A stretch of DNA of 64,000 bases from Bacteroidia bacterium (lineage in GTDB: Bacteria > Bacteroidota > Bacteroidia > NS11-12g > UBA955): contig JBILJV010000001.1 in the NCBI GenBank assembly GCA_044377005.1, positions 34,999 to 98,998 of the forward strand, given 5' to 3'. The notes under the pieces are model-generated. The model did no database searches. It was not told the DNA's origin and saw nothing but the letters and a program-made list of their open reading frames with translations. A program made the position numbers and the translations under genes. Position 1 is the first letter of the stretch. Each line of letters starts with the position of its first letter. Shown here in pieces: positions 29,706 to 56,688 of the stretch.

Positions 29706-31076
29706 TTAAAGTTGCTTCAACTTTGAATCAAGTTTTTGTCCTAAAAATTGATTAAACCAATGAGCGCTTTCTTTCAAAGTTCTTTTTTTAGTCACAAAGT
29801 CCACGTGTATCAGTCCAAATCGAGGTTCATAGCCTTCAGCCCATTCAAAATTATCAATTAGGGACCATGTAAAATAGCCTTTGATATCTACACCTTCATC
29901 TTTAGCATTTAAAACTTCTTGAAGGTGCGATTGGTAAAATATTATTCGTTGGTAATCTTGTATGCTATTGTTTTCTATTATGTCATTAAGGGCTATGCCA
30001 TTTTCGGTAATGTATAAAGGCGTATTTAATTGGTATTGATTCAGCTTTATTAATGTATGATAAATACTAGGAGGGTGTATTTCCCAATTCATCATGGTTA
30101 ATTCTTTGGTTCTTTTTACCGCCGGTATATGTTTAATGGGGAGTAATGGGTTTAGATAATTGTACTTAAACAATTCTCTTGTATAGTTTTGCACTCCAAT
30201 AAAATCAAGTGGTGTCTTTAGTAAGTGTTCGTCTTTTTTAAGGTAGTTTTTCTGAGATTTGGTAAATAATTTGATGTTTTCAATCGGATAACCTTTGCCA
30301 ATAATTGGCTCAAAAAACAATCTGTTAATCAATATATCTGCAAGATTAGCTGCTTTTTTATTTTGAGGCTTTGAATCTATACTTTCAATGTGAGTAAAAG
30401 AAAATGAAGATCCAATCTGAAGTTCGGGATTTATTTTTTTTAAAGTATAATAGGTTATGTTAATACATAAGTTGGCGTGATGTAATGCCTTAATAAAGGG
30501 CTTTACTCCTCTTCTACCAGGGGCATGTATTCCAAAAAAATAACCTGCACCAACAAACACTGAAGGCTCATTCAATAATATCCAGTGTTTAACATTAGGT
30601 AATTGCTGAATACAAACAGTAGCATATTGCTTAAACCATTGCACGATTTCAGGATTAGTCCATCCGCCTTTTTTCTCAAGAGCCTGTGGTAAGTCCCAAT
30701 GATATAGGGTTATCCAAGGAGTGATTCCTTTTTCTAAACAATAAGCGACTATCGATTGGTAAAACTCAAATCCTTCATTGTTGATATTTTCGCCGTCGGG
30801 CATTACACGAGCCCAAGCAATGCTAAATCTAAAATGCTTGAACCCTATTGATTTTAAATGGTCAATATCTGTTTTGTAGTGTGTATAAAAATCAGCAGAG
30901 TTTTTTAAGTGTTCCCTGTTTTTAATGGGGTGTTTTTTGAAAAATCGGGTTGGGGGATTGCAAAATTCATCCCAAATAGAAGGCCCTTTCCCTCCTATGT
31001 CCGTAGCAGATTCTGTTTGTGCAGCAGAAATAGAAGCGCCCCAAATAAATGATTCACCAAAATGATTTATCGTCAA
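29706..31076 (-). CDS. GH1 beta-glucosidase
   Basis: GH1 signatures FIWGASISAAQTE, TLYHWDLPQ, acid/base LNEP, nucleophile ITENG. Confidence 0.88.
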   Translation of the reverse strand: MTINHFGESFIWGASISAAQTESATDIGGKGPSIWDEFCNPPTRFFKKHPIKNREHLKNSADFYTHYKTDIDHLKSIGFKHFRFSIAWARVMPDGENINNEGFEFYQSIVAYCLEKGITPWITLYHWDLPQALEKKGGWTNPEIVQWFKQYATVCIQQLPNVKHWILLNEPSVFVGAGYFFGIHAPGRRGVKPFIKALHHANLCINITYYTLKKINPELQIGSSFSFTHIESIDSKPQNKKAANLADILINRLFFEPIIGKGYPIENIKLFTKSQKNYLKKDEHLLKTPLDFIGVQNYTRELFKYNYLNPLLPIKHIPAVKRTKELTMMNWEIHPPSIYHTLIKLNQYQLNTPLYITENGIALNDIIENNSIQDYQRIIFYQSHLQEVLNAKDEGVDIKGYFTWSLIDNFEWAEGYEPRFGLIHVDFVTKKRTLKESAHWFNQFLGQKLDSKLKQL

Positions 31077-31894
31077 GCTGTGTGAATGTTAAATTCTTTT
31101 AGTAATTCATTAATCCCAATCTCTTCATCTTCCTCTGCCACACTTGTGTCTGTAGTCTCTTGGTAAGTATACAATTCCCACTTATTATTGTTGTATTCCA
31201 ATGCAGTAAGGTTCTCAACCCAATCGCCACTGTTAAGATAAAGAATGGATTTATTGTTTGTATGAATGGTTTTAATTACTGGTTGGTGAATGTGGCCACA
31301 AACCACAGTTTGACAATCTTCGGAAAGGCCATAATTAATACAAACTTCCTCAAAATCATTGATAAATTTAACTGCTTTTTTAACGCTATTTTTAATTGCT
31401 TTTGATAGAGAAACACGTTTGCGACCTATTTTGTCTAAGCAATAATTGACAAATGTGTTGAGGATGATTAAAAAGTCATAACATTTGCCACCAAATTTGG
31501 CAAGCCACTTAGCATGTTGAACACTAAAATCAAAGACATCTCCGTGGAAAAATAAGGTTTTGTTATTGTTTATGTTTAATACAAGTTTGTTTATGAGCTT
31601 TATTTGACCAAAGTTCATGTCAGCAAACTTTCTTAGTAACTCATCATGGTTGCCAGTAATGTAGTAAATATCAACGCCTTTGTTCGAAAGTTTGAGTAAG
31701 TGGCGAATTATTTTCATATGACTTTTAGGGAAATACTTTTTAGAAAATTGCCAAATGTCAATAATGTCACCATTTAAAATGAGGGTTCGGGGTTTGATGC
31801 TTTTTAGGTAAGATAAAAGCTCTTTAGCCCTACAACCATATGTGCCTAAATGAACGTCAGAGATCACTACTATATCTACGTTTCTTGCTTCCAT
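31073..31894 (-). CDS. Calcineurin-like metallophosphoesterase
   Basis: DxH...GDxxD...GNHD motif series; 4-nt overlap (ATGA) with the GH1 gene, indicating co-transcription. Confidence 0.65.
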   Translation of the reverse strand: MEARNVDIVVISDVHLGTYGCRAKELLSYLKSIKPRTLILNGDIIDIWQFSKKYFPKSHMKIIRHLLKLSNKGVDIYYITGNHDELLRKFADMNFGQIKLINKLVLNINNNKTLFFHGDVFDFSVQHAKWLAKFGGKCYDFLIILNTFVNYCLDKIGRKRVSLSKAIKNSVKKAVKFINDFEEVCINYGLSEDCQTVVCGHIHQPVIKTIHTNNKSILYLNSGDWVENLTALEYNNNKWELYTYQETTDTSVAEEDEEIGINELLKEFNIHTA

Positions 31895-32118
31895 TATTTT
31901 TTCAAACAGTTACGGATTGAAATAAAGAATAAGTCAAAAAAGAGAGATTGAATAAAGTCTAAAATTCGGTTTAACATGATACAAAATTCGCAGTTGAATA
32001 TAAAAAGAACATGAATTGTGTGTTAACAAAAAAAGACAATTAACATGTGTATAATTTTTTAGAAGTTAGAGTTAAAAAAATAACAATCACGCTATAAGGT
32101 ATGAAATAATTCAATGAA

Positions 32119-34047
32119 TTAATAATCTCCGCCCACTTTCCTGTCGTTTAACTTTGTGTTGTTGATTTTTGGTAATTTAGAAGGTTTAGTTGTTAAGTTG
32201 GCACTATCAGTCAAGCTTTCCATAAAAGCTATGATTTGTTTGATCTCTTTTTTGCTCAACTCCAGTTTGTCGGTCCCTAAAGTTTGATAGTCTAATTGGA
32301 TACCAACTCCTGCACCACCGCCATTGTTGTAAAATGTCATCACCTCATCTAAGGACTGATAGGCACCATTGTGCATATATGGTTTTGAAATGGCAATGTT
32401 TCTGACCGTAGGTGTTTTAAAAGAATATTCATAAAAAGGCACTTGTTCTTTAAGCAATGCACCCCCTCTGCCTTTGTCTTTGCCTAATACTTGCTTTTTT
32501 TGATGTGGGTTTTCTGATACACCCAAAACTTCCGACTCTGATTCTGAATAAAAAGGAGGTACGCTCCCATTAAAAATAGGGGCAAAATGACAAGTGCCAC
32601 AAGCGGCTTTGCCCATAAATAAATTAAACCCTTCCACGATGTTGTTTTCAGCTTGACTCAATTTGTTGGGAGGATTCAGCATCAATTGGTCAAATTTTGA
32701 ATTGAGTCCAATAATGGAACTTACATACACACTCATGGCAAATTGGGTGTTTTGAATGGAAATGGCTTGATTGGTATCCAAATGAAAGGCTTTGCTATAC
32801 AGCGTTTTATAATCGGAACTTTGGTTTAATTTGTCTAATATGTCGTTCCAATTGGTATTAAACTCCGAGCCATTTGTAATCACATGTTCCATTTGGTCTG
32901 TTAGGTCATGCGCTCTTAAGTCATGAAAATAGCGGTCACTATAGATGCAATTAATAAGGGTAGGGGAATTTCTGTTTAAATGACCATCAAAATTATAAGC
33001 CAAACTTTTAGCCAATTGATCGGTAAAACCTTTTTCGGGATTGTGGCAACTGGCACATGAGCGTTGGTTATTTGCAGACAAAATAGGGTCAAAGAATAAC
33101 AATTGACCCAATGTTTTGGCATCATCATTAATGAATTTTTTGGGTACATTGATATAATAATCTGAATTTAAAAAATCAGAGGCAAATAAATTATTAGATA
33201 AATAATTAAATGCTTGCGGTTTGTTGTTGATTTCTGAGGGTAGTTCTAATTCTGATGCTAAATGAGCTTTAAGCAGTTGGTCATATAGCGGATTAATCAC
33301 TTGGGTTAAAAACGCATAGCGATTGAATGTTTCAAAGTTATTGTTTTGTTTTAAATAGTCTATGCCTTTATTAAGGGTTTCAAAAATAGAATCACTCAAT
33401 AGTTTATTTTTAAGCTCTATTTCAGGTTGGAATATTGTTAAATCGGATTGCATGGTTTCAAATACACTTAAGGCATCTTGAATGCCATTACCAGAACCGG
33501 GCGTGTCAAAACCTGTTAAACCCAAAGTAGCTATTCTGACTAATTCAATTCTTGCGGCAATGAAAATGTCTCTTGAGTAAATTTCAGGTAAAGTCAATTG
33601 GTTCAACTGTTTAGTCATGTAATCCAATTGGATATGCATTTCTTTTGTCAAGTGTTCAGCAGAATCATCGAAGAGTAATTCGTCTAAAACTTGTAGGCCT
33701 TTAGGTTCTAGTACATTAGCTCCAAAGCTGTTTTGTTCCAACTTAGGCAAAGGAGCGCCATTGATATTTTCTTTAATAAATGTAGCATTATAGTGTTCAG
33801 CTAAATATTCCCATGATTTATAAGATTTTCTCAAACTTAAGTAACTCGATTTTAACGCTTCAAAACTCAATGTTTTTTGTTCAAACTTGGATACGTTCCA
33901 ATTGAATTCATTAACACTTGTTTTGAAATTCTCAAATCTTTTCATATCATTTTTTTTAATGATTTCAATGGGTGAATCACTGTTTTTGAAAGCAGAAATA
34001 CATAGAATGATGATAAAAAGTGAAGTTATAGTATATAATTTATTCAT
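32119..34047 (-). CDS. Di-heme cytochrome c peroxidase/MauG-family protein with ~300-aa N-terminal extension
   Basis: Two CxxCH motifs (CASCH, CGTCH) in the C-terminal half; signal peptide. Confidence 0.75.
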   Translation of the reverse strand: MNKLYTITSLFIIILCISAFKNSDSPIEIIKKNDMKRFENFKTSVNEFNWNVSKFEQKTLSFEALKSSYLSLRKSYKSWEYLAEHYNATFIKENINGAPLPKLEQNSFGANVLEPKGLQVLDELLFDDSAEHLTKEMHIQLDYMTKQLNQLTLPEIYSRDIFIAARIELVRIATLGLTGFDTPGSGNGIQDALSVFETMQSDLTIFQPEIELKNKLLSDSIFETLNKGIDYLKQNNNFETFNRYAFLTQVINPLYDQLLKAHLASELELPSEINNKPQAFNYLSNNLFASDFLNSDYYINVPKKFINDDAKTLGQLLFFDPILSANNQRSCASCHNPEKGFTDQLAKSLAYNFDGHLNRNSPTLINCIYSDRYFHDLRAHDLTDQMEHVITNGSEFNTNWNDILDKLNQSSDYKTLYSKAFHLDTNQAISIQNTQFAMSVYVSSIIGLNSKFDQLMLNPPNKLSQAENNIVEGFNLFMGKAACGTCHFAPIFNGSVPPFYSESESEVLGVSENPHQKKQVLGKDKGRGGALLKEQVPFYEYSFKTPTVRNIAISKPYMHNGAYQSLDEVMTFYNNGGGAGVGIQLDYQTLGTDKLELSKKEIKQIIAFMESLTDSANLTTKPSKLPKINNTKLNDRKVGGDY

Positions 34048-34074
34048 AATACATTGGGCTTATTGAATGAAAAA

Positions 34075-34103
34075 GAACCGATACTTTCGTATCGGTTCTT
34101 TTA
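34075..34103 (-). terminator. Rho-independent terminator (bidirectional-capable)
   Basis: GAACCGATAC-tttc-GTATCGGTTC flanked by an A-run and a T-run; downstream of the 34130..36013 gene. Confidence 0.65.
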
Positions 34104-34129
34104 ATGATTGTTTATGTTTTGAGATAAGG

Positions 34130-36013
34130 TTATTCAACAATGAATTTTTGAGTCATTCCTTCAGCATTTCTGATGAAATAAACACCAGATGCTAATTCTT
34201 CAATGTTAATTAAATTAACACCTCTTGCTACTATTACTCTTTGTCCTTGAGCATTGTAGATGGCAATATCAGTGGTTTGGTTAAAGTTTAATTCTCTAGA
34301 AGCAGGGTTTGGATAAACTGTAAAAACATTGCTTTCTTCTTTTAAAGTATTAATAATAGAAGTTTTATTTACTTTAAAACCAGAGATAGCATAGGTTAAT
34401 GAGTTGTTATATGGGAAAGTATTCGAAGTACTTGGATGTTGAGCATTAAATAACATAGTATTTTCGTCAATTGCAACTCCACCAGTTATTTCAGCACCTG
34501 GAGAACAAGCAGTAATTCTAATCAAATTATTGAAAGTAGGGTTAGGAATACTTAAATCTAATAAATATGTTTCACATACAATTGTAACATTTGAAGGCAT
34601 TCTGTTCCAGTTTGTACCATTTAAATCTTCTTGAATTATTAAGTATTCTTTTCCATCAATGTTGATGTTATGAATACCATCTGGGTTTGAAAAATGGATA
34701 GGAGGGTAAGCATATCTGTTTTGAGAATTAATAGCAGGTGCTAAAGGTCCACCTTCAATGTATGAACGTATTAAATTAGTCGCTGGGTCGAATTCTAAAA
34801 CTCTACCATAATAGTCATTAAATTTACCAGCTCTTACTGAGTCAGCAGCTTGAGCATCAGTTCCAGTAAAGTTTGAACCTTTCAATACTCTGAATCTAGC
34901 TTTATAACCATCAATTAAACCTTGGCTAATAACACCATAACGCGCATTACCGGTATTGTATGTAAAAGCATCTCTACCTGTTTCTGTAATATAAATTTTG
35001 CCATTAGCTACAGTTCCCCATTCTAATCTGTTAAACATAGATGCACCTCTTCTTACTGCAACGGTATTTAACTGTAACAATGTATCTAGGTTGTTTTCGA
35101 TTGAAATCCATTTAGTAGGGGCATCTTGTTTGTATACATACAATTGGCCTGTAGTAAAATCACCTGCATTTGTAGCAACAAATTTTGCTAATATACCTGG
35201 AGATCCATCTTCGAATAAATAAACGGTTTTGTTATCGTTCATTACAACACCACCTTCCCAACCAGCTCTTCCCCAGTTGTATTGTTTTCTTACAGCTTTT
35301 GCATTATTTGGATCTATTTCTACCATCCAATTTAAGTTTTCGAATTTTTTCAAAACTTTGCCATTAAAACCTGGAAAACCAGCAGGTGTAGTTGTTCCAA
35401 TAATGAAGTTAGCTGTATCTTTAATACCGCTACCATTACTAAATATACCACGATTGCTTGATTGCATCCACTCTTCAGCAGTCCAGATTCTACCACTTGG
35501 TGCATTAATACCACCGCAATTCATTCCTGTTTCACCAACAGTATTAACGAAATCTACGTTAAAGAATTTGCCTTTTCTACCATCAGTTAAGGTTTGGTCA
35601 ACAACTTCTAATTGGTCGTTAGCACCTCTTTTAAGTTTGAACATAGTCATACCACCACCATCACCAATTTTAGCATCGCTTGTTACCATTTCATGATTAA
35701 CAATGACGTTGCCTAAAATACCGTTAGAGTTAGCTGGCGCTTTAGAAAAACCGATAAAATCGTGCCATTGTTTAGCAACAGACTTACCAGCAGCATTGCC
35801 ATAAGTTGCTGTAGTTTGAACCGTGTCAACTCCACCAACAAACAATACTTGTTGTTTAAGTGGGGATCTTGGCATCCAGATGGTTTTTACAGACCATGCA
35901 GTGTCAATGTTCATTGGAAACGGTGTTTGTGCATTTGCTGCAAATGCAGACAAACCCAAAGCGATAAAAGTAAAAATTTTCTTTTTCATTTTAATTAAAT
36001 ATTGTTGATGCAA
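34130..36013 (-). CDS. Secreted beta-propeller-like protein with T9SS C-terminal sorting domain (possibly PhoX-like)
   Basis: Signal peptide; C-terminal ~80-aa Por-secretion CTD (TVYPNPASRELNF...); central region with PhoX-like PDG...QED pattern; function uncertain. Confidence 0.55.
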   Translation of the reverse strand: MHQQYLIKMKKKIFTFIALGLSAFAANAQTPFPMNIDTAWSVKTIWMPRSPLKQQVLFVGGVDTVQTTATYGNAAGKSVAKQWHDFIGFSKAPANSNGILGNVIVNHEMVTSDAKIGDGGGMTMFKLKRGANDQLEVVDQTLTDGRKGKFFNVDFVNTVGETGMNCGGINAPSGRIWTAEEWMQSSNRGIFSNGSGIKDTANFIIGTTTPAGFPGFNGKVLKKFENLNWMVEIDPNNAKAVRKQYNWGRAGWEGGVVMNDNKTVYLFEDGSPGILAKFVATNAGDFTTGQLYVYKQDAPTKWISIENNLDTLLQLNTVAVRRGASMFNRLEWGTVANGKIYITETGRDAFTYNTGNARYGVISQGLIDGYKARFRVLKGSNFTGTDAQAADSVRAGKFNDYYGRVLEFDPATNLIRSYIEGGPLAPAINSQNRYAYPPIHFSNPDGIHNINIDGKEYLIIQEDLNGTNWNRMPSNVTIVCETYLLDLSIPNPTFNNLIRITACSPGAEITGGVAIDENTMLFNAQHPSTSNTFPYNNSLTYAISGFKVNKTSIINTLKEESNVFTVYPNPASRELNFNQTTDIAIYNAQGQRVIVARGVNLINIEELASGVYFIRNAEGMTQKFIVE

Positions 36014-36222: not shown

Positions 36223-37839
36223 TTACTCTTTTGCAATTTTTATTCTCTCAATATTATTCCCTATAGTAAAACTCAAAGTGTAAATGCCGGATTTAAGCAT
36301 ATCGATATTGTTAATTAATATCGCATTATTTTCAATGTTATAATAGTTCGATAATACTAGTTTACCATCTGAAGAATACATTTTAATTAAACTAGAGGTT
36401 TCTTCTGAATTTGCTAATAGGATATTAATATGGTCTTTGCACGGATTGGGAAAGGCAATATTGTTTTTATTTTTTTCAATTGATGTGATAGCCGTAGTTT
36501 TATCTTGGTATATTCTTATGTAATCAATTTCCAAATTACTTTGAGTAAATGATTGACTAATATTAGGAAGTATGGCAATATTTATTAGTAGATATTGTTC
36601 CAAATCAAAGGGCCAAGTACTATTGTTTTTTATTTCAGGTTCATATGTATAATGAACGACTGAATCAACGCTGAACTCGATTTTATTTGGAGTCCATTCC
36701 ATAGAATATAAATGAAACGAATTAGATGCATTTGGAATTGTTTGTCCTCCAAAATTGATGGTATTGCCAAAACTAGAAGTGGTGTGAATAGCACTTTGAA
36801 CAAAATTTTGATTTTGTCCCCAATGTTCTAGAATATCTATTTCGCCGCATGCTGGCCAAGACATGTTTCCAAAACCTAAGTTGTGCCAATAAGCCCCTCT
36901 TTCATCAATGTTTTTTCCTAACATCCATACAGCAGGCCATGTTCCTACGCCAGAAGGGAGTTTTGCGCTAAACTCAACCCTGCCATATTTAAAGGCAAAT
37001 TTTGAATTAAGTCTAGCAGATGTGTATTGTTTGGTATGGCCCTGGTCAGTAAAATTTTCTCTTTTAGCAATCACTTTCAATAGGCCATTCTCAACAAAAG
37101 AATTACTAGGTCTGTTAGTATAATGTTGGATTTCGCCGTTATGCCAACTGTTAGATGTGGGGAGCTGAGTTTGATGATGCCATTTGTTATCGTTGATAGC
37201 GCCGTTGGTGTCAAATTCATCAGACCATACCAGTTTTGTGTATAGAGATTTAGTTGGAGGTGTTGCCAAGTATTCAAAGTCATCAATATAGGCAAGTACG
37301 CTGTCTCTGTTATTTTCTCCATTAATTTGAATTACAACTCTATTGAAATCTTTTCTTTGGATCGGAGGCAATGACCCTGTATTTAAATTTCTATAAGCGT
37401 CTTTGGCAAAATCAAATGTTATTGTTTGCCACTCGTCTGTAAGTATAGGTTTAATTATTTCCGATTGGGTCGACCAAGGTTCGTTAATGTTGCCATCTTG
37501 AAGTTTTAAAGAAATTTGGTTGATTTGAATACCAGAGAGTCTTTTAGAAGGGACATATACTTTTAATGAAAAGACACTTCCTTTGGATAGGTCAAAATTT
37601 CTATCATTGTCAAATCTGACATTGGCATATAAGCCACCTTTGTCTAAGTATTCCAAGACCTTTGAAGAGTTGTTTTGTGGAGTATTAATTGGATTTGGAA
37701 TTCCAAGTTTAATGAAGCAATCATCGCCTTTCCATGAATTGATATTCCCATTCCCTTCAAAATCGTCTTTTAAGATTTGTGAATTGGCGATAAAAGGATA
37801 AGTTATTCCAACTATAAAGAAGACGATTTTTTTAAACAT
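36223..37839 (-). CDS. GH16 beta-glucanase (laminarinase-like) with N-terminal CBM-like domain and T9SS CTD
   Basis: LVWSDEFD and catalytic EIDILE (ExDxxE) motifs; C-terminal AFPNPCKDHINI... sorting domain; signal peptide. Confidence 0.8.
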   Translation of the reverse strand: MFKKIVFFIVGITYPFIANSQILKDDFEGNGNINSWKGDDCFIKLGIPNPINTPQNNSSKVLEYLDKGGLYANVRFDNDRNFDLSKGSVFSLKVYVPSKRLSGIQINQISLKLQDGNINEPWSTQSEIIKPILTDEWQTITFDFAKDAYRNLNTGSLPPIQRKDFNRVVIQINGENNRDSVLAYIDDFEYLATPPTKSLYTKLVWSDEFDTNGAINDNKWHHQTQLPTSNSWHNGEIQHYTNRPSNSFVENGLLKVIAKRENFTDQGHTKQYTSARLNSKFAFKYGRVEFSAKLPSGVGTWPAVWMLGKNIDERGAYWHNLGFGNMSWPACGEIDILEHWGQNQNFVQSAIHTTSSFGNTINFGGQTIPNASNSFHLYSMEWTPNKIEFSVDSVVHYTYEPEIKNNSTWPFDLEQYLLINIAILPNISQSFTQSNLEIDYIRIYQDKTTAITSIEKNKNNIAFPNPCKDHINILLANSEETSSLIKMYSSDGKLVLSNYYNIENNAILINNIDMLKSGIYTLSFTIGNNIERIKIAKE

Positions 37840-47858: not shown

Positions 47859-47865
47859 AGGCAAT

Positions 47866-48708
47866 TTGAAGAGAATTTTAAATAAACAATTAATGAATAA
47901 ATCGAATAAATTAACACTATTGACAATTTTAGCAATTTCTATGGGAGGATGTAAGGTAGAACCCATTCAGAACTTACCGGAAAAAAAATATGAATTGGTT
48001 TGGAGTGATGAGTTTGTAGGTGATTCTGGCGTTAATCCTAATGCTTTAAATTGGACTTACGATATTGGCACTGGACAAAATGGTTGGGGAAATAATGAAC
48101 TTCAATCCTATACCAACAATCCCCAAAATGTATCTTTGGATGGTTCTGGGAATTTGGTTATTTCTGCTTTGAAAAGTACTACAGTTAACTACACTTCGGC
48201 AAGAATAAAAACAGAAGGTCTTTTTGCTCATCAGTTTGGAAGAGTTGAAGCACGTATAAAAACACCAACAGGTTCAGGAATTTGGCCTGCATTTTGGATG
48301 TTAGGAGCAGATTTTAAGGATGTTGGCTGGCCTAAGTGTGGTGAAATTGATATTATGGAACAAAAAGGCAAATTTTCAAACATAACTTATGGTTCAATTC
48401 ACGGACCAGGATATGCTGGTGGTCAAGCTATTACTACGCCATACGGATTAAAAGATAATAGGTTTGATGCTGATTTTAATGTTTACGCGGTTGAATGGGG
48501 CCAAAATTATATTGATTTTTTTGTCAATAATTATTTTTACAAAAGAGTAACCCCCAACGATGTTAAGGGTGAATGGGTATTTAATAAACCTTTTTTTATT
48601 ATCCTGAATATTGCTGTTGGTGGAAATTTTGTTGGTCCTCCCAATATCAATACCCCTTTCCCAAGTTATATGTATGTTGATTATGTTAGAGTTTACAAAG
48701 AAATATAA
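47866..48708 (+). CDS. GH16 laminarinase-like lipoprotein
   Basis: Lipobox MGGC; LVWSDEF; catalytic EIDIME; 280 aa single catalytic domain. Confidence 0.82.
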   Translation: MKRILNKQLMNKSNKLTLLTILAISMGGCKVEPIQNLPEKKYELVWSDEFVGDSGVNPNALNWTYDIGTGQNGWGNNELQSYTNNPQNVSLDGSGNLVISALKSTTVNYTSARIKTEGLFAHQFGRVEARIKTPTGSGIWPAFWMLGADFKDVGWPKCGEIDIMEQKGKFSNITYGSIHGPGYAGGQAITTPYGLKDNRFDADFNVYAVEWGQNYIDFFVNNYFYKRVTPNDVKGEWVFNKPFFIILNIAVGGNFVGPPNINTPFPSYMYVDYVRVYKEI

Positions 48709-48854: not shown

Positions 48855-51800
48855 ATGTCAGGTCAAAAACAAAATAAAAAAGCTACTTTGGTAGAGATAA
48901 AAAGATTGAAAATAGAAGGAGAAAACTTCTTTTGTATTTCAAATTATGATGAAATGCGTCCCTTTTTTATGAGTGTGGTTAGCGATTCGCACCATTGGAT
49001 GTTTATATCTAGCAATGGGGGAATTTCTGCTGGTCGCAAGAATGCCGAATATGCTTTGTTCCCCTATTATACTGCGGATAAAATTACGGAATCCTATGAT
49101 ATAACAGGCTCTAAATCTATTTTTCAAATTATTCAAAATGAAAAAATTCATGTTTGGGAACCCTTTTCAGAAAGGAATAATAGCTTGTTCAACGTTTCTA
49201 GAAATTTGTATAAAAATGCAATTGGGAATAAAATTATTTTCGAAGAAATAAATCACACTTTTGAACTTACATTCAGGTACGAATGGAACTCAAGTGATCA
49301 ATACGGTTTTGTTCGTAAATCTTCTCTAGCAAACAATGGCAATCAAGCCTTAACCGTTGCTATATTAGATGGAATACAAAATATTATGCCTGATGGTGTC
49401 GGTGCTGATTTGCAAAACTCAACGAGTATTTTGGTAGATGCTTATAAACGCAATGAACTTGAGATAGAATCAGGTATGGGTATCTATGCACTCAGTGCAA
49501 TAATAGTTGACAAGGCTGAACCAAGTGAAGCTCTAAAAGCAAATATTGCTTGGTCTATAGGTTTTGATAAACCCAAATTCTTGCTTTCTTCCCTTCAACT
49601 TAATGCCTTCAGAAACGGAGAGGATGTTGTTCAAGAAGAGGATATTAAGGCAGAAAAAGGGGCTTATTTTATTAATCAAAAAATAACCTTAGCCAGTGGC
49701 GAAAAGAAATCTTGGTTAATTGTAGCTGATGTTAACCAAAGTCAAGCAAATGTAGTCGAACTGACCAATGAAATTATTTCAAATAATGAACTAAAAAAGC
49801 AAATTGAAAATGATATAGAATTAGGCTCTAAGCGCTTAAAGGAACTGAATGCTTCCTCTGATGGAATTCAATTGTCAGATGATGTTTACAGAGATACTCG
49901 ACATTTTTCTAATACTCTTTTTAATATAATGAGAGGGGGTATTTTTGATTTTAACTATCAAATTGAAAAAAAAGACCTCGTCAGTTATCTTGAAAATGCC
50001 AATAAAGATGTTTATGAAATTCACAAGGACTTGTTGCATAGCTTGGATGAAGTTTTTAACGTTTTTCAATTGCAAGAAATATACAGCACAATTAATGACA
50101 ATAATTTTAAACGACTTTGTATAGAGTATTTGCCACTTAAGTTTAGCCGAAGACATGGAGACCCAAGTAGACCATGGAATAAATTTTCTATCAATACACG
50201 TAATGCGGATGATCATTCTAAGGTGTTGGATTATGAGGGGAATTGGAGAGATATTTTTCAGAATTGGGAAGCTTTGTCCATCTCTTATCCTGCATTTACC
50301 AAAGGGATGATTCATAAGTTTTTGAATGCAACAACATTCGAAGGCTATAATCCTTATAGGGTTACAAAGAGTGGATTTGATTGGGAAACCGTAGAGCCGG
50401 ATAATCCTTGGTCGTATATCGGTTATTGGGGTGATCATCAAATTGTTTATTTGCTCAAATTGTTGGAAATAAATGAGAAATACTATCCAGGCCAACTGAG
50501 TAGTCAATTCAGTGAAAACCTATTTGTGTATGCCAATGTTCCTTATAAAATTAAAAATTATCAGGCGATTTTAAAAAATGCGAAAGACACTATTCAATTT
50601 GATAAAAAGTTAGATGAAGAAATTAGAGAAAAACGAGTTTTAATTGGTTCAGATGCTGCATTGCTTTTTGCGCAAAATGATAAAATTTACAATGTCAATT
50701 TTATTGAAAAAATATTGGCCACAATTTTATCTAAACTTTCAAATTTTATTCCCGAAGGTGGTATTTGGATGAATACCCAAAGACCTGAATGGAACGATGC
50801 TAATAATGCTTTGGTTGGAAATGGAGTTTCTATGGTTACATTATATTACCTCAGAAGGTTCCTTGAATTCTTCGAAAAACTAATTGAACCAATAGATGAA
50901 GAGCGCGTAGAATTGTCGAATGAGTTAATCATTTTCTTTAAAAAAATTCATGCTACATTCGATGACAACTTAGCTTTGTTAGATTCAGGGATAAATGACA
51001 GTCAACGAAAAGCAATTCTTGATAGCTTAGGACAAGCAGGAAGCGATTACCGTGAACATATTTATAAACATGCTTTTTGGGGCGAAAAAAGAACTATATC
51101 ATACCGAAGACTTAAAAGCTTTGTTAAAGTAAGTCTTCAGTTTATTGAACATACCATTAAGGCTAATAAGCGTCATGATAATATGTATCATTCATACAAT
51201 TTAATGACACTGAATAGCAAAAACGAAATTTCAATCAACTATTTAAGTGAAATGCTTGAAGGTCAAGTTGCCGTTTTAAGCTCCGGATATTTGTCTCCTG
51301 AAAGTGCCCTTAAATTATTGGATAGTATGAAAAGTAGTGCCCTTTTTAGAGAAGATCAACAAAGCTATTTACTCTATCCTAATAAGCATCTTCCTAAGTT
51401 TTTAGATAAAAATAGAATTCCTATTGAATTAATCAAACAATCGCATCTTCTTTCACTTATGTTTAATGATGGAAATAAATCAATTATAGAGCAAGATTTA
51501 AAAGGGGAATTTCGATTCAATGGGAATTTTAAAAATTCAAATGACTTGAGTAATGCTATTGATTTATTAAGCCATTCTAAATATGCATCATTTCTTAAAA
51601 GTGAAAAGAAACAACTCTTAGAAATTTTCGAATCTGTATTTAATCACAAGTCATTTACTGGTCGCTCAGGCACTTTTTATGGATATGAAGGTTTAGGTTC
51701 TATTTATTGGCACATGGTTTCTAAACTGCAATTAGCAGTCCAAGAAATGTGTATTCAAGCAATAGAGTTACATGAAAGTACTGAACTTGTTGCAGGCTTG

Positions 51801-52307
51801 TTGAAGCATTATTACGAAATAAATGAAGGTGTTGGTGTGCATAAATCACCCACCATTTATGGGGCATTCCCAACCGATCCATACTCGCATACGCCAAGTA
51901 ACAAAGGAGCACAACAGCCTGGAATGACTGGTCAAGTAAAAGAGGATATTCTGAGTCGATTTGGTGAATTAGGTGTTTTTGTCTCGAAAGGTTGTTTGTT
52001 TTTTAACCCTTGCTTGTTGAGAAAAAATGAATTTATATCTCAAAATCGACAGTTTCATTATGTAACTCTTGACATGGAACACAAATCATTAATGCCTGAA
52101 ATTGGTTCCTTGTGTTTTACCTATTGCCAAATTCCTATTGTATATAGATTGTCAAATGATAATTATCTTGAAATTGAAAAAAGTGACGGCACTGTTTTAA
52201 GGAATAATTCATTGTATTTAAATGAAGAATTAAGTCAACAAATATTTAAAAGAACGGGTGCTATATCTATAATTACAGTTTATATCAATGAATCTATTTT
52301 GAAATAA
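48855..52307 (+). CDS. Large cytoplasmic protein, candidate glycoside phosphorylase/hydrolase (GH94-clan, e.g. GH149/GH161-like)
   Basis: 1150 aa with no signal peptide, embedded in a glycoside-hydrolase operon next to an MFS importer; family assignment is inferential and no motif was verified. Confidence 0.35.
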   Translation: MSGQKQNKKATLVEIKRLKIEGENFFCISNYDEMRPFFMSVVSDSHHWMFISSNGGISAGRKNAEYALFPYYTADKITESYDITGSKSIFQIIQNEKIHVWEPFSERNNSLFNVSRNLYKNAIGNKIIFEEINHTFELTFRYEWNSSDQYGFVRKSSLANNGNQALTVAILDGIQNIMPDGVGADLQNSTSILVDAYKRNELEIESGMGIYALSAIIVDKAEPSEALKANIAWSIGFDKPKFLLSSLQLNAFRNGEDVVQEEDIKAEKGAYFINQKITLASGEKKSWLIVADVNQSQANVVELTNEIISNNELKKQIENDIELGSKRLKELNASSDGIQLSDDVYRDTRHFSNTLFNIMRGGIFDFNYQIEKKDLVSYLENANKDVYEIHKDLLHSLDEVFNVFQLQEIYSTINDNNFKRLCIEYLPLKFSRRHGDPSRPWNKFSINTRNADDHSKVLDYEGNWRDIFQNWEALSISYPAFTKGMIHKFLNATTFEGYNPYRVTKSGFDWETVEPDNPWSYIGYWGDHQIVYLLKLLEINEKYYPGQLSSQFSENLFVYANVPYKIKNYQAILKNAKDTIQFDKKLDEEIREKRVLIGSDAALLFAQNDKIYNVNFIEKILATILSKLSNFIPEGGIWMNTQRPEWNDANNALVGNGVSMVTLYYLRRFLEFFEKLIEPIDEERVELSNELIIFFKKIHATFDDNLALLDSGINDSQRKAILDSLGQAGSDYREHIYKHAFWGEKRTISYRRLKSFVKVSLQFIEHTIKANKRHDNMYHSYNLMTLNSKNEISINYLSEMLEGQVAVLSSGYLSPESALKLLDSMKSSALFREDQQSYLLYPNKHLPKFLDKNRIPIELIKQSHLLSLMFNDGNKSIIEQDLKGEFRFNGNFKNSNDLSNAIDLLSHSKYASFLKSEKKQLLEIFESVFNHKSFTGRSGTFYGYEGLGSIYWHMVSKLQLAVQEMCIQAIELHESTELVAGLLKHYYEINEGVGVHKSPTIYGAFPTDPYSHTPSNKGAQQPGMTGQVKEDILSRFGELGVFVSKGCLFFNPCLLRKNEFISQNRQFHYVTLDMEHKSLMPEIGSLCFTYCQIPIVYRLSNDNYLEIEKSDGTVLRNNSLYLNEELSQQIFKRTGAISIITVYINESILK

Positions 52308-52311
52308 TAGA

Positions 52312-53595
52312 ATGTGTAAGATCCGTCTGTTATATCGTCTTTTGTGCATACTTTCGGTTATTCTAATTGCTTGCAATAATCACAATTCTGTAAAAAGGAA
52401 TAAAGGTGAAAAGCCCTTTAGCAAAAAAGCTTTTCAAATATTAGGGGATACGAATTACCAAGCAATTTGCTATGGAGGGTATAGGAAAAATACTCGAGAT
52501 TCACAGCCTACTTTATCTCAAATAACAGAAGATATGCGGATTTTGAATGCAATGGGGATTAAACTGTTACGAACCTATAACACTCATTACAATGAAATAG
52601 AAACTTTATTGCAGGCAATCACACATTTACGTTCTGAAAATTCGAATTTTGAAATGTATGTAATGCTAGGAGTTTGGATAGAATGTGAAAATGCATGGAC
52701 AGAAAAAGAGCCTAGCCATGACAAGGAAAATGAGAAAGCAAATGCGGCAGAGATAAAAAAAGCGGTTGAATTGGTCAATCAATATCCTGAAATAATTAAA
52801 ATGATAGCCGTTGGAAATGAAGCAATGGTAAAGTGGGCTACTAATTATTATGTTCAACCTAATGTAATTTATAAATGGGTTAATTATCTTCAGTTGTTGA
52901 AGAAAAAAAATCAGTTAGACAGGGATTTATGGATTACCTCTTCAGATAATTTCGCATCATGGGGTGGAGGCGATACTTCATATCATGTCGATGATTTAAA
53001 AAAACTTTATCAGGCCGTTGATTTTGTTTCTATTCATACTTATCCAATGCATGATACCTATTATAATCCTAGTTTCTGGGGAACATTGCCAATAGAAAAT
53101 CAATTGTCAAATGAAACTCAAATAGACTCTATTATGAATAGAACATTGGATTATGCAAAAATGCAATATCTTGGAGTTTATAATTATATGAAATCTATTG
53201 GCGTTAATAAGCCAATTCACATAGGAGAAACAGGTTGGTCAACGAATTCTAATGATTTGTATGGGAGTAAAGGAACAAGCGCTTGTGATGAATATAAATC
53301 GGCTAGATATTATCAACTCATTCGCGAATGGACCAATAAAGAAAAAATGACCTGTTTTTATTTTGAAGCCTTTGATGAAAATTGGAAAGATGCCAATAAT
53401 ATTGGTGGTTCTGAAAATCATTTTGGTTTATTTAAAATCAATGGAAATGCCAAATATGCACTTTGGAATAAAGTGGATAAAGGCGTTTTTAAGGGATTAA
53501 CTAGGGATGGGAACATCATTGAAAAAACATACAAAGGGAATAAAAAAAAATTGATGAAAACTGTAGAATTGCCTTTTAAATTAAAACAAAAATAA
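52312..53595 (+). CDS. GH17-like beta-1,3-glucanase/transglycosylase lipoprotein
   Basis: Lipobox LIAC; acid/base AVGNEAMV and nucleophile IGETGWST match GH17 motifs (xGNE / ETGWPS). Confidence 0.6.
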   Translation: MCKIRLLYRLLCILSVILIACNNHNSVKRNKGEKPFSKKAFQILGDTNYQAICYGGYRKNTRDSQPTLSQITEDMRILNAMGIKLLRTYNTHYNEIETLLQAITHLRSENSNFEMYVMLGVWIECENAWTEKEPSHDKENEKANAAEIKKAVELVNQYPEIIKMIAVGNEAMVKWATNYYVQPNVIYKWVNYLQLLKKKNQLDRDLWITSSDNFASWGGGDTSYHVDDLKKLYQAVDFVSIHTYPMHDTYYNPSFWGTLPIENQLSNETQIDSIMNRTLDYAKMQYLGVYNYMKSIGVNKPIHIGETGWSTNSNDLYGSKGTSACDEYKSARYYQLIREWTNKEKMTCFYFEAFDENWKDANNIGGSENHFGLFKINGNAKYALWNKVDKGVFKGLTRDGNIIEKTYKGNKKKLMKTVELPFKLKQK

Positions 53596-55104
53596 ATGAA
53601 TATTTTGCCAAACATATCATTCTTTAACAAGTTTTTGCTTGTCGTTACTTGTATGGCTTTAGTTCAATGCACAAATGATAATATGAAAATTGAAGTTTAT
53701 GAAACCTCCAAAAGCGGAAATGCCTTAACTCTTGTTTCTGATTTTAAAACAGCTGAAAAGATAGTAAATATGTCAATTGACCCAGAGGTAACCTATCAAA
53801 CTATTGTTGGTTTTGGAGGTTCATTTACAGAAGCTTCAGCCTCTTTGCTCAACCAATTAAGTAAAGAGAAAAAAGAAGAAATACTGCAAGCCTATTTTGG
53901 TGATAATGGAGCTAAATATTCTTTAAGTAGAACACACATGGCATCTTGCGATTTTTCAAATACTAATTACACGTATGCCAAGCTTGAAAATGATTTGGAT
54001 TTGAAAGGCTTTACAATTGAAAATGATATTGATGATTTAATCCCAATGATATTAGAGGCTAAAAAAATATCGAAAGAAGGTTTTAAAATGATTGCTTCGC
54101 CATGGACTGCACCACCTTGGATGAAAGACAATAATCATTATGTGGGAGGGAAATTATTGCCTCAATATTACGATGTTTTTGCCTTGTATTTTTCTAAATA
54201 TTTGGATGCTTATAAAGATAAAGGAATTGATGTTTGGGGACTTACTCCCATTAATGAACCTCATGGGAATGGGAATAATTGGGAAAGTACCCATTTTACT
54301 CCTAAAGAAATGACAGATTTTGTTGAAAATCATTTGGGTCCTAAACTTGAAAAAGATGGGTGGAACGATATTAAAATTTTAGGTTATGACCAAAATAGAG
54401 CTGGAATAATAGAATGGGTGGATGAGATGTTCAGAAGTGATAAATCTTCCAAATATTTTGCAGGAACAGCTTTTCATTGGTATGAGAGTACCTATGAGGT
54501 TTTTCCGGAAGCATTGTCTTATGCACATCATAAAGCCCCCAATAAATTACTTATCGAAACAGAAGGTTGTGTGGACTCAGAAGTGCCCAAATGGCGAAAT
54601 GACCAATGGTATTGGGAAATGGAGGCAACGGATTGGGGTTGGGATTGGGCGAGTGAAAAAGACAAATACTTGCATCCTAAATATTCACCTGTCAACAGGT
54701 ATGCCATAGATATTATTGGGTGTTTAAATAATTATGTAAATGGTTGGGTGGATTGGAATATGGTATTAAATAAACAAGGTGGTCCTAATTGGTTCAAAAA
54801 TTGGTGCATTGCGCCGGTTATTGTTGATGCCGAAAATGATGAAGTTTATTACACTCCATTGTATTATGTAATGACACATTTTAGTAGATTTATGAGGCCC
54901 AGCGCTATGAAAATTAAATGTGAAATAGATCAAAAGTATCTTCATGCAACTGCTGTAAAAAATCCAGATGGAACTATTGCTGTTGCTGTGTTTAATCCAA
55001 TCAATGAAACAGTTGCTATAAAATTAAAACTAAATAACCAATTCCAAACATGGACCATAAACCCCCATGCCATTCAAACAATACTCATCAACAATTATAA
55101 ATAG
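53596..55104 (+). CDS. GH30 family glycosidase lipoprotein (probable beta-1,6-glucanase)
   Basis: Lipobox VQC; GFGGSFTEASA N-terminal signature; acid/base INEP; LLIETEG nucleophile region. Confidence 0.65.
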   Translation: MNILPNISFFNKFLLVVTCMALVQCTNDNMKIEVYETSKSGNALTLVSDFKTAEKIVNMSIDPEVTYQTIVGFGGSFTEASASLLNQLSKEKKEEILQAYFGDNGAKYSLSRTHMASCDFSNTNYTYAKLENDLDLKGFTIENDIDDLIPMILEAKKISKEGFKMIASPWTAPPWMKDNNHYVGGKLLPQYYDVFALYFSKYLDAYKDKGIDVWGLTPINEPHGNGNNWESTHFTPKEMTDFVENHLGPKLEKDGWNDIKILGYDQNRAGIIEWVDEMFRSDKSSKYFAGTAFHWYESTYEVFPEALSYAHHKAPNKLLIETEGCVDSEVPKWRNDQWYWEMEATDWGWDWASEKDKYLHPKYSPVNRYAIDIIGCLNNYVNGWVDWNMVLNKQGGPNWFKNWCIAPVIVDAENDEVYYTPLYYVMTHFSRFMRPSAMKIKCEIDQKYLHATAVKNPDGTIAVAVFNPINETVAIKLKLNNQFQTWTINPHAIQTILINNYK

Positions 55105-55125
55105 TCTTATATTAAACCATCAATC

Positions 55126-56688
55126 ATGTCAGTTTTATCTTCAAATAGCAGAGAAAAAGTTCCCTTTATTCAAAAAATTTCATTTGGTTCGGGTCACTTA
55201 GTCCTCAATTTATTGCCTGGAGCACTAGGAGTATTTAGCTTTTTTCTTTTTACAACCTTTGGTATGGATCCAGTTCTTGCAGGTTTGTTAGGTGGTTTGC
55301 CAAGGATTTATGATGCATTAACCGACCCAATTATGGGTTTTATATCAGATAATACAAAGTCTAAATGGGGAAGAAGGAGGCCATATATTTTTATTGGCGC
55401 TATCCTTAGTGGTATTTTCTATATTTTATTGTGGCAACTAAGTCCTGAAAATTCTCAAATGTATAACTTTTGGTATTTTTTGATTTTTTCAATTGTTTTT
55501 TTTACCGGAAATACCATTTATGCAACCCCTCTTGTTGGTCTTGGTTATGAAATGACATCAGATTATAATGAAAGAACAAAATTAATGGCCTTCTCCCAAA
55601 CGATTGGTCAGTTTGCTTGGATGATAGTCCCTTGGTTTTGGGTGGTCATTGCGGATCCTAAAATATTTGCAACCCAGGCAGAAGGGGTAAGTCAATTATC
55701 GTTTTATGTAGGTGCAGCATGTATCGTTTTTGGTATATTGCCTGCATTTTTTTGTAAAGGGATAGACTCTCAAAACATGGGAAATAGAAAGGAAATTAGT
55801 TTAAAAACAGTAGGGTCTAACATGAAAGACTTATTTGTTTCAATGAAGCAAGTCTCCAAAAACAAGCCATTTATGAAATTGTGTGGTGCTACTTTCTTGA
55901 TATTTAATGGGTTTCAAATTGTAGCGGCATTTAGTGTATTTATTATAGTGTTTTATATGTACAACGGGAGCTATGCCGCAGCAGGAACTTGGCCTGCATG
56001 GTTTTCAACTATTTCTGCTCTTTTAACAGCTTTTTTGGTTATCCCTATTATTACATGGATGTCAAAAAAATGGGGTAAAAGAAATGCATTTATTATTTCA
56101 ACGATTATTTCAATTGTTGGTTATATTCTAAAATGGTTTGGGTTTAATACTGAATTAAATTCGCAATTCAATCAAACAGTTTTATCTCATAAAATGACCA
56201 ATGCGGTAGGCTCATTTTTTGAATTGATAAATCCAATGCTCGCCGATTTGAATATGTCTTGGTTTTCAATCAATACCTCAAATGAAATGCCTTGGTTAAT
56301 ATTTTTACCCATCCCATTTATTGCATTTGGCTTAGGGGGACTATTTACGTTAATGATGAGTATGACAGCAGATGTTTGTGATTTGGATGAACTTGAAAAT
56401 GGTATGCCTAGAAAAGAAGGAACCTTTGGTGCTATTTATTGGTGGATGGTCAAGTTAGGTCAAGCGCTAGCTTTAGTTCTAAGTGGATTAGTGTTAAAAT
56501 TAATTGGTTTTGATGGTGGTGCAGCTTCACAATCTACTGAAACTATGTACTATTTAAGAATTGCAGATATTATTATTCCTTCGGTAACAGCAGCTATTGC
56601 AATAGTTATTATGTGGAAATATAATTTAGATGAAGAAAAGTCTAAAAAAATTAAAGAAGATTTAATTGCAAGAAGAGGCGAAATATAA
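55126..56688 (+). CDS. MFS glycoside-pentoside-hexuronide (GPH) family sugar:cation symporter
   Basis: 12 TM helices; GPH-family motif DxxTDPIMGFISD in loop 2-3; conserved RRRPYI motif. Confidence 0.75.
   Translation: MSVLSSNSREKVPFIQKISFGSGHLVLNLLPGALGVFSFFLFTTFGMDPVLAGLLGGLPRIYDALTDPIMGFISDNTKSKWGRRRPYIFIGAILSGIFYILLWQLSPENSQMYNFWYFLIFSIVFFTGNTIYATPLVGLGYEMTSDYNERTKLMAFSQTIGQFAWMIVPWFWVVIADPKIFATQAEGVSQLSFYVGAACIVFGILPAFFCKGIDSQNMGNRKEISLKTVGSNMKDLFVSMKQVSKNKPFMKLCGATFLIFNGFQIVAAFSVFIIVFYMYNGSYAAAGTWPAWFSTISALLTAFLVIPIITWMSKKWGKRNAFIISTIISIVGYILKWFGFNTELNSQFNQTVLSHKMTNAVGSFFELINPMLADLNMSWFSINTSNEMPWLIFLPIPFIAFGLGGLFTLMMSMTADVCDLDELENGMPRKEGTFGAIYWWMVKLGQALALVLSGLVLKLIGFDGGAASQSTETMYYLRIADIIIPSVTAAIAIVIMWKYNLDEEKSKKIKEDLIARRGEI

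Follow-up and report, generated by a model that had tools for sequence, protein, structure and literature searches.

Models of laminarin turnover by Bacteroidota, the PULDB database and metaproteomic substrate predictions based on SusC/D all rest on the SusC/SusD paradigm. When the GH149 family was defined by Kuhaudomlarp et al. in 2018, Bacteroidetes GH149 genes were described in clusters with GH16, GH17, GH30/GH3 and a sugar transporter; SusCD was present in some and missing from others, the 'CAZyme clusters lacking susCD-like gene pairs' (PMC5827456). A homologous cluster, laminarin 'PUL 2' (polysaccharide utilisation locus 2) of Formosa sp. Hel1_33_131, has been followed by proteomics; all its proteins are laminarin-induced and were detected in bloom metaproteomes (PMC6246565). 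Here we analysed 64,000 nucleotides of a Bacteroidia bacterium genome (contig JBILJV010000001.1, positions 34,999 to 98,998; below, the window), whose 36.2–56.7 kb region holds a gene cluster for the use of beta-1,3/1,6-glucan (laminarin) and is of the Formosa PUL 2 type.

The cluster combines co-oriented plus-strand genes for GH16, GH149, GH17, GH30 and a major facilitator superfamily (MFS) sugar transporter, the gene set of GH149-type laminarin clusters, and is syntenic with 80 loci obtained in a scan for GH149 relatives, each covered to at most 10 kb on either side. All genes between 43275 and 56688 share one orientation, with intergenic gaps of 0–146 bp and a convergent gene at the end, and synteny across the 80 loci delimits a conserved core of about 36223–56688. 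An initial annotation of the window had proposed a laminarin-type beta-glucan locus here, which the synteny with the laminarin-induced Formosa cluster bears out. While this class of locus is already known from the 2018 GH149 clusters without susCD and from the Formosa proteomics, what appears to be new is the occupant of the SusC/SusD slot: a protein that joins a laminarinase-like enzyme to an outer-membrane barrel, followed by a lipoprotein with carbohydrate-binding modules (CBMs), and locally anti-correlated with SusC/SusD.

In the Formosa locus (L006 in our set), the published tags for GH16 (24690), FbGH17A (24720), FbGH30 (24730) and MFS-GH17B (24740) fit the gene order, so that by position the fusion corresponds to FORMB_24670 and the lipoprotein to FORMB_24680. 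In the membrane proteome, FORMB_24670 reached 1.19 %riBAQ (relative intensity-based absolute quantification) on laminarin compared to 0.006 on glucose (196-fold) and 0.004 in the control (PMC6246565, Table S3), a level above both laminarin-induced TonB-dependent receptors (0.46 and 0.45; PMC6246565). Its distribution over the intracellular, membrane and extracellular fractions (0.18/1.19/0.67) resembled that of these receptors, and FORMB_24680 was detected essentially only on laminarin (PMC6246565). Both proteins were among those found in the bloom metaproteomes. Unfried et al. label the two genes 'hypothetical' or 'GH2 family'/'glycoside hydrolase' and describe no barrel (PMC6246565), and the corresponding gene is called 'GH2 beta-glycosidase' in a 2026 Muricauda paper.

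Fusion protein and lipoprotein in the SusC/SusD position

No Plug, TonB_dep_Rec, CarbopepD_reg or SusD family was found on any large open reading frame (ORF) of the window with Pfam and NCBIfam; as a positive control, Pfam recovered Plug/CarbopepD_reg_2 and SusD_RagB in other GH149 loci. Custom hidden Markov models (HMMs) were built from 15 SusC and 17 SusD sequences of those loci; with all filters switched off, their best score anywhere in the six translated frames of the window was 4.7 bits. Beyond the right end, 4.2 kb more are covered by a same-species contig (L086), which is 99.98% identical across 12.3 kb; this extension has a BatA-like gene, fumarase C and DUF4145, and no SusC/SusD. Adjacent susC-like and susD-like genes, by which a Bacteroidota PUL is strictly defined, therefore occur neither in the window nor in the 4.2 kb to its right. 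The initial annotation had likewise reported no SusC/SusD in the 64 kb and had named a co-induced susCD pair just outside as evidence that would speak against it. Two ORFs of 1078 and 468 aa, suspected from their size and position to be a missed SusC and SusD, were ruled out as such by Pfam, NCBIfam, the custom HMMs and hhalign, with positive controls.

The 1078-aa ORF (43182–46418, plus strand), which the initial annotation took for a binding protein, encodes an enzyme-barrel fusion instead. Its start is most likely ATG 43275, in agreement with gene calls in close relatives, which gives a protein of 1047 aa (43275–46418) in the position of SusC. It consists of a signal peptide (43275–43358), a TIM barrel (about 43359–44495), linker helices and a beta-barrel (about 44586–46415); the signal peptide is of type I, as throughout the fusion family. 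Pfam detected neither Plug nor TonB_dep_Rec in it, the sole weak match being GH2_C.

GH158 was the best fold match for the enzyme domain of about 380 residues. E169 (LGNEN) and E270 (LLTEFG) align with the GH158 catalytic pair Glu143 and Glu229, which are 86 residues apart in the published enzyme, and both are invariant in 67 homologues. The domain shows the (alpha/beta)8 fold with a Glu acid/base and a Glu nucleophile that characterises clan GH-A. GH5, GH2 and GH157 came close to GH158 in fold score. By sequence, the domain resembles GH158 only weakly (E = 9e-7; about 23% identity across 150 residues), and we therefore refer to it as GH158-like rather than as a member of GH158. We propose that it is laminarinase-like, a putative endo-beta-1,3-glucanase.

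The barrel region of about 600 residues had no Pfam match at E ≤ 5, a barrel-only profile retrieved nothing from the PDB sequences (best E = 0.76), and comparison of this profile with a SusC alignment gave an hhalign probability of 0.2%. In an AlphaFold2 (AF2) model, the region folds into about 24 long antiparallel strands over residues 434–1038, with a pLDDT of about 80–86 in the strands. Foldseek matched this part to outer-membrane barrels with probability 1.00, namely Campylobacter MOMP (7e-9), B. thetaiotaomicron BtuB3 (2e-8), AlgE (1e-7) and, at about 2–3e-7, PfeA (1.6e-7), ChuA and BtuB. Hydropathy alternation in the predicted strands was 2.27 compared to 1.31 in composition-matched random draws, and the region is devoid of Cys. 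Among 1.84 billion representative proteins, 474 relatives were found. Those consisting of the barrel only measure about 560–620 aa and end in ...SF, ...FF, ...KF or ...SY, an aromatic beta-signal; one has a clear signal peptide. The C-terminal 600 or so residues therefore appear to form an outer-membrane beta-barrel of an undescribed family. The protein does not combine the N-terminal plug, TonB box and 22-strand barrel of a TonB-dependent transporter, and its likeness to such transporters is at the level of the barrel fold only. Further architectures in this barrel family (P0245, P0376, P0271, P0272, P0300 and P0333) include two tandem TIM domains plus barrel (1351 aa, Ala-rich), CBM4_9 plus TIM plus barrel (1218 aa) and standalone proteins of about 580 aa.

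Exopolysaccharide export porins such as BcsC and PgaA likewise combine a periplasmic domain at the N-terminus with a barrel at the C-terminus. Together with AlgE among the Foldseek matches and glycosyltransferase genes on the opposite strand 2–4 kb downstream, this layout would suit a fusion that acts, like those barrels with periplasmic hydrolases, in secretion or remodelling of beta-glucan. We regard such an export role as very unlikely: the operon is purely catabolic (GH16, GH149, GH17, GH30 and MFS), growth on laminarin raises the orthologues about 200-fold, the type of regulator found here activates laminarin use, and the glycosyltransferase genes are not kept beside the locus in the close relative L083.

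Counting the short strand 593–599 brings the AF2 model to 24 strands and places every one of its nine turns of three or fewer residues on the same side. The rule generally applied to outer-membrane proteins would then put both barrel termini, and with them the enzyme domain, in the periplasm. Unfused orthologues of the TIM domain carry mixed leaders (four lipoproteins, four type-I signal peptides) and do not settle its compartment; with the model as our guide, we tentatively consider it periplasmic.

The most conserved element of the barrel family is a non-strand segment of about 50 residues rich in Asp, Pro and Trp (fusion residues about 797–847; window 45684–45836). Its motif DDPF..NRE..DPTPxTW.YxWDNDRxEDA is invariant in 67 fusions and retained in distant barrel-only relatives, and the segment is a candidate for a constriction or a sugar-binding site.

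The next gene (46452–47858, plus strand), in the position of SusD, encodes a 468-aa lipoprotein with a CBM-like beta-sandwich, a Big_2-like Ig domain and a second CBM-like beta-sandwich. An acidic motif follows the lipid-anchored Cys (CKRELSED here, CERDLSDD in many homologues). In Bacteroidota, such a motif after the lipobox marks surface-exported lipoproteins, and the protein is probably surface-exposed.

The pairing of the two genes is strict. Fusion and lipoprotein were found together in 44 of the 80 GH149 loci, 38 of them without SusC/SusD nearby; the lipoprotein gene begins less than 200 bp after the fusion in 42 of the 44, and in none of these loci does the barrel lack the TIM domain. 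Where at least 8 kb upstream of GH149 was available (n = 68), 38 loci had the fusion only, 16 SusC/D only, six both and eight neither, an anti-correlation of fusion and SusC/SusD with an odds ratio of 0.08 (Fisher p = 1.9e-5, no phylogenetic correction). The regulator is directly followed by the fusion in 19 loci (none with SusC/D) and directly by SusC in six (none with the fusion). Cultured bacteria in which regulator and fusion adjoin in a locus free of SusCD include Flavobacterium aquatile LMG 4008, Patiriisocius sp. Uisw_017 and Winogradskyella sp. PE311. The layout of the window recurs in L081, L082 and L083, close relatives with identities of 96%, 88% and about 90%. In the near-complete relative JGI 3300071567 (Ga0621872_00008, 2.95 Mb), the lipoprotein is 90% identical and the genes from the T9SS GH16 to the MFS keep their order. 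At 90% identity, the number of clusters exceeds 5,600 for the fusion family and 1,300 for the lipoprotein family, and databases annotate them only as hypothetical, glycosidase, GH2-TIM or Ig-like. The pair at 43275 and 46452 may be an alternative outer-membrane route for glycans.

Enzymes, secreted proteins and regulator of the cluster

Downstream of the pair follow the enzymes of laminarin breakdown, whose compartments were predicted from leader sequences. The first is a GH16 endo-beta-1,3(4)-glucanase (47893–48708, plus strand; longest ORF from 47866; Pfam GH16, 73 bits) with the lipobox ...ISMGGC, for which we adopted start 47893 from the 271-aa gene calls in L081–L083; it is present in 60 of the 80 GH149 loci. 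The 1150-aa product of 48855–52307 (plus strand) had been listed as a CBM-rich binding protein. It is instead a GH149 beta-1,3-glucan phosphorylase, matching the NCBIfam equivalog NF058639 over its full length (1757 bits, cut-off 1150; profile positions 5–1134 of 1134); its closest GH149 among GTDB representatives is 63% identical, and without a leader it would be cytoplasmic.

The following gene (52312–53595, plus strand) encodes a homologue of the GH17 endo-beta-1,3-glucanase FbGH17A with the lipobox ...VILIAC. It is weak in Pfam (29.6 bits) and strong against PDB 6FCG (E = 1e-167, 562 bits, residues 10–422); structure and enzymology of FbGH17A were reported by Unfried et al. (PMC6246565). 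It is followed by a GH30 lipoprotein (53596–55104, plus strand; Pfam GH30, 249 bits, plus GH30C; lipobox ...MALVQC) that is 64% identical to the GH30 of the Formosa locus and is probably an exo-beta-1,6-glucosidase removing laminarin side branches; the activity of FbGH30 has been characterised (PMC6246565). The last gene of the plus-strand operon (55126–56688; Pfam MFS_2, 204 bits) encodes an inner-membrane MFS transporter of the GPH family, a predicted oligosaccharide importer found in 68 of the 80 loci. This transporter is joined to a GH17 domain in L082, the 88%-identical relative (15117–16397), and in Formosa (16227–18563), and is separate in the window and in L083, so the MFS-GH17 fusion was gained or lost among close relatives. 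By their leaders, the 468-aa protein, the small GH16, GH17 and GH30 are predicted lipoproteins, and GH149 and the GH1 enzyme farther to the left are leaderless. All of the GH1, GH16 (two), GH17, GH30 and GPH-type MFS genes named in the initial annotation were found at its coordinates. The families also hold, in Pfam for GH1, GH16 and GH30 and in 6FCG for GH17; a failure of HMMs to confirm them would, by that annotation, have spoken against its reading.

On the other side of the regulator and the pair lie three adjacent genes for which C-terminal domains (CTDs) of the type IX secretion system (T9SS) had been claimed. These are indeed type-A CTDs by Pfam and TIGR04183, and all three proteins combine a signal peptide with a Por_Secre_tail CTD, as expected of T9SS cargo. 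A multidomain GH16 endo-beta-glucanase (36223–37839, minus strand; Pfam GH16, 78 bits; Por_Secre_tail, 40 bits; TIGR04183) consists of a type-I signal peptide (leader MFKKIVFFIVGITYPFIANSQ), a weak N-terminal CBM4_9-like region (CBM_4_9, E = 7.5e-4), the GH16 domain and the CTD. A second cargo protein (38172–40052, plus strand), with a type-I signal peptide and the CTD in both Pfam and TIGR04183, carries CBMs and is a probable laminarin-binding protein. For the third (34130–36013, minus strand; 627 aa), Por_Secre_tail (38.6 bits) is the only family besides a signal peptide; its function is unassigned and its membership in the system uncertain. T9SS machinery families were not recognised among the ORFs of the window scanned by profile, a scan that left out several ORFs below 340 aa.

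Among the related loci, those of the fusion type have the CBM protein as T9SS cargo in 15 of 18 cases, and those of the SusCD type have it as a lipoprotein in 9 of 10 (p = 2.7e-4). The large GH16 shows the same split, with T9SS versions in fusion-type loci (p = 5.4e-3), where five of seven scored homologues carry the CTD, one a lipobox and one neither of these. That T9SS versions of both proteins accompany the fusion architecture fits external hydrolysis followed by porin-type uptake. The initial annotation had gone further and suggested a Sus-independent glycan capture system based on T9SS and lipoproteins. On this reading, T9SS enzymes and lipoproteins would account for all capture and breakdown, small sugars would cross by general porins and no dedicated outer-membrane component would be encoded in the locus. 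The part of this proposal that links T9SS cargo to loci without SusCD finds some support, as three cargo genes lie next to the operon and the T9SS forms track such loci, and an inner-membrane MFS with cytoplasmic GH149 and GH1 would suit small oligosaccharides. However, the SusC/SusD slot holds a barrel-enzyme fusion and a CBM lipoprotein, so that a capture system of T9SS proteins and lipoproteins omits the likeliest outer-membrane component. Nor does it explain the two genes at the head of the operon, which are the most conserved and most strongly expressed; the fusion is an outer-membrane barrel by fold, and 17 of 38 fusion-type loci have no T9SS cargo within ±10 kb. We therefore consider passage by general porins improbable.

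Between the T9SS genes and the pair, and absent from the initial annotation, lies a gene for a one-component regulator of the BguR type that spans the membrane (longest ORF 40170–43187, minus strand). Its product has an N-terminal signal anchor, a Reg_prop propeller sensor, Y_Y_Y (715–773), a single transmembrane (TM) helix at about 781–803, a charged linker after it and a LuxR/GerE-type helix-turn-helix domain (932–997); HisKA, HATPase and receiver domains were not detected by Pfam or NCBIfam. BguR, a membrane one-component activator of laminarin PULs, has the same architecture (2026 preprint, 10.64898/2026.01.10.698779): signal peptide, propeller sensor with Y_Y_Y, one TM helix, linker and GerE-type domain, without HisKA, HATPase_c or receiver. 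Homologues that adjoin SusC or the fusion elsewhere are 23–49% identical and measure 932–976 aa in other loci. On the strength of this shared architecture we propose that the regulator acts as a BguR-type activator of the cluster.

The longest-ORF calls of regulator (TTG 43187, minus strand) and fusion (TTG 43182, plus strand) overlap head to head at 43182–43187, and both are over-extended. Between them, a divergent control region (43129–43210) contains blocks that are conserved with L081, L082 and L083, even though the spacer around them has diverged in L082. It has a minus-strand TATTTTTG, a TAnnTTTG-type -7 box, at 43136→43129, a tandem GTAGTA-aa-GTAGTAG at 43157–43171 and a plus-strand TATTTTTG at 43203–43210, 65 nt upstream of ATG 43275. 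These could be divergent Bacteroidota-type -7 boxes around a candidate regulator site, GTAGTA-aa-GTAGTAG. Read in this way, the boxes would require that the regulator starts downstream of TTG 43187; its true start probably lies between about 43046 and 43120, and no canonical start codon precedes its signal peptide. A sigma-70 promoter scan did not exceed shuffled expectation (80 sites compared to 69 ± 8.7; this consensus is unsuited to Bacteroidota), and neither did a terminator scan.

To the left, the locus had been drawn from 29706, a boundary that synteny does not support. None of the four genes at that end, which encode GH1, a metallophosphoesterase, a di-haem peroxidase and the T9SS protein at 34130, has homologues near GH149 in the 80 related loci, and on present evidence we do not count them in the system, though their membership is uncertain. 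The GH1 gene (29706–31076, minus strand; Pfam GH1, 434 bits) encodes a beta-glucosidase without signal peptide, predicted to be cytoplasmic, and overlaps the upstream metallophosphoesterase gene by 4 bp. The peroxidase is a di-haem cytochrome c peroxidase/MauG/MbnH-like protein with an N-terminal extension of about 300 residues that adjoins the 627-aa T9SS cargo (32119–36013, minus strand for both).

Farther from the cluster, a DUF6029 protein (554 aa, 395 bits) is encoded immediately upstream of an MFS_1/Sugar_tr transporter (8479–11368, minus strand). The two are retained on a same-species contig and may represent another pair of outer-membrane protein and inner-membrane transporter, with no substrate assigned. 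A soluble acyl-ACP desaturase family protein is found at 27585–28565 (minus strand; FA_desaturase_2, 423 bits). ORFs at 15429–17123 (plus strand, 564 aa) and 26507–27457 (minus strand, 316 aa) match zero Pfam families, and the 564-aa gene is kept on a same-species contig. The window opens at its left end with genes for a PAS-domain histidine kinase and a LuxR-type response regulator (21–2981, plus strand), which, judged by their distance and orientation, have no link with the laminarin locus.

A possible route for laminarin oligosaccharides across the outer membrane

Taken together, we tentatively suggest a mechanism in which laminarin oligosaccharides cross the outer membrane through the barrel of the fusion. 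In this mechanism, the T9SS-secreted CBM-GH16 and CBM proteins would bind and cut laminarin outside the cell, and the surface CBM-Ig-CBM lipoprotein would pass the oligosaccharides to the fusion barrel, which would serve as a dedicated TonB-independent channel. The GH158-like endo-beta-1,3-glucanase domain on the periplasmic side could cleave the entering chain and thereby also block its back-diffusion. The lipoproteins GH30 (debranching), GH17 and GH16 would then trim the products, and the GPH-type MFS would take in small oligosaccharides. In the cytoplasm, GH149 phosphorolysis would release glucose-1-phosphate, and the nearby GH1 might finish laminaribiose. As a whole, we hold this sequence of events to be a little short of an even chance.

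Several observations weigh against it. Laminarin SusCD pairs could be encoded in the remainder of the genome, and Formosa sp. Hel1_33_131 has, besides this cluster, two laminarin-induced SusCD PULs elsewhere in its genome (PMC6246565). The pair stands alongside SusC and/or SusD in six loci, and the anti-correlation given above is uncorrected for phylogeny. The AF2 model is of moderate overall quality (pLDDT 67, pTM 0.48) and was built from a shallow alignment of 74–96% identity, and the fusions end in ...INIGK or ...ININN, which are non-aromatic. Finally, a 24-strand barrel without a recognisable plug would have to be gated in some way.

An alternative is that the cluster is accessory, with outer-membrane passage by SusC/SusD encoded elsewhere. 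The barrel would then merely anchor the GH158-like laminarinase, at the periplasmic face or on the surface, and the lipoprotein would be an ordinary surface glycan-binding protein. From the coexistence of cluster and SusCD PULs in Formosa it follows that the pair may be accessory, and Sus-independence of the whole organism does not follow from the cluster; the 'selfish' uptake of fluorescent laminarin by this strain was ascribed by its authors to SusCD. Clusters of this kind have already been treated as CAZyme clusters without a transporter of their own (PMC5827456). In addition, unfused orthologues of the enzyme domain (about 430 aa, 61–66% identical) lie just upstream of GH149 in eight barrel-less loci, four of them with SusC/SusD; occurring as lipoproteins or as soluble secreted proteins, they indicate that the enzyme can work without a barrel. 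However, some 600 residues and about 24 strands far exceed what an anchor requires, and in other lineages the barrel is also a standalone outer-membrane protein. The pair sits exactly in the regulator-proximal SusC/SusD slot, with a strong local anti-correlation, and 64 kb plus 4.2 kb are free of SusC/SusD here; in Formosa, FORMB_24670 is more abundant on laminarin than the TonB-dependent receptors. An accessory role is thus a serious possibility, appreciably below an even chance.

A bolder form of the channel reading is that fusion and CBM lipoprotein make up an autonomous TonB-independent translocon, in which the lipoprotein would catch beta-1,3-glucan chains at the cell surface, the chains would pass through the barrel, and the glucanase tethered on the periplasmic side would cut them on exit and so act as a ratchet. 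It would be a second way of importing glycans across the outer membrane in Bacteroidota, one independent of SusCD. This we find rather doubtful. If it were true, the translocon would be widespread, given the size of the fusion family, and highly expressed in marine bloom bacteria. More generally, if the pair transports oligosaccharides, surveys based on SusC/D would undercount laminarin users, the 'selfish' and 'sharing' modes of uptake would need revisiting, and it would become possible to test directly how SusCD-less Bacteroidota clusters import glycans. Should the barrel be no more than an anchor, a very large family of 'hypothetical', 'glycosidase' or 'GH2' proteins still gains a defined architecture and a proposed substrate.

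Comparison with described laminarin loci and sugar porins

The window belongs to the class of SusCD-less GH149 clusters defined in PMC5827456, a paper that names no outer-membrane component for them. With Formosa PUL 2 (FORMB_24670–24750) it shares the order fusion, lipoprotein, GH16, GH149, GH17, GH30 and MFS without internal SusC/SusD, at identities of 59% (fusion), 38% (lipoprotein), 62% (GH149), 56% (GH17) and 64% (GH30). Only the Formosa cluster has a PKD/CBM lipoprotein between GH16 and GH149, the MFS-GH17 fusion and an extra GH17, whereas a separate MFS, T9SS-secreted CBM and GH16 proteins and a divergent regulator adjoining the operon are found only in the window. SusCD-bearing BguR laminarin PULs (Formosa agariphila; Kappelmann variant B; PMC6298971) have the same regulator architecture and the same set of GH16, GH149, GH17, GH30 and MFS. 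In these, SusC-SusD and a lipoprotein surface glycan-binding protein come after the regulator, while in the window the barrel-enzyme fusion and the CBM lipoprotein take that place and the CBM and GH16 proteins are T9SS cargo.

Characterised GH158 enzymes (BuGH158, PDB 6PAL; GH158(Pro), PDB 9ORO) are about 15–23% identical to the enzyme domain of the fusion (E ~1e-6). They carry a C-terminal Ig-like domain where the fusion has helices and an outer-membrane barrel of about 600 residues.

SusC/SusD utilisomes have in common with the pair a large barrel gene followed by a surface lipoprotein gene, a place at the operon head by the regulator and co-induction by the substrate. The Foldseek likeness of the fusion barrel to TonB-dependent transporters includes B. 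thetaiotaomicron BtuB with its surface lipoprotein. In contrast to SusC, the fusion has no plug, no CarboxypepD_reg domain and no detectable sequence or profile relation to it, and unlike SusD-like proteins, which are almost wholly alpha-helical, the lipoprotein at 46452 is all-beta with CBM folds. The pair therefore presumably works without TonB coupling.

We found no description of a GH-barrel fusion or of a TonB-independent laminarin porin in Bacteroidota in the literature outside subscription-only papers. Maltoporin and chitoporin are substrate-specific sugar porins coupled to external hydrolysis, and BcsC and PgaA are barrels with N-terminal periplasmic domains. These porins are smaller (14–18 strands) and lack a fused glycoside hydrolase, and to our knowledge none of them occurs in Bacteroidota laminarin loci; the barrel-only profile detected no homology to them. 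What maltoporin and chitoporin would share with the fusion is the proposed principle, in which oligosaccharides released by secreted enzymes are admitted by a barrel dedicated to them and independent of TonB.

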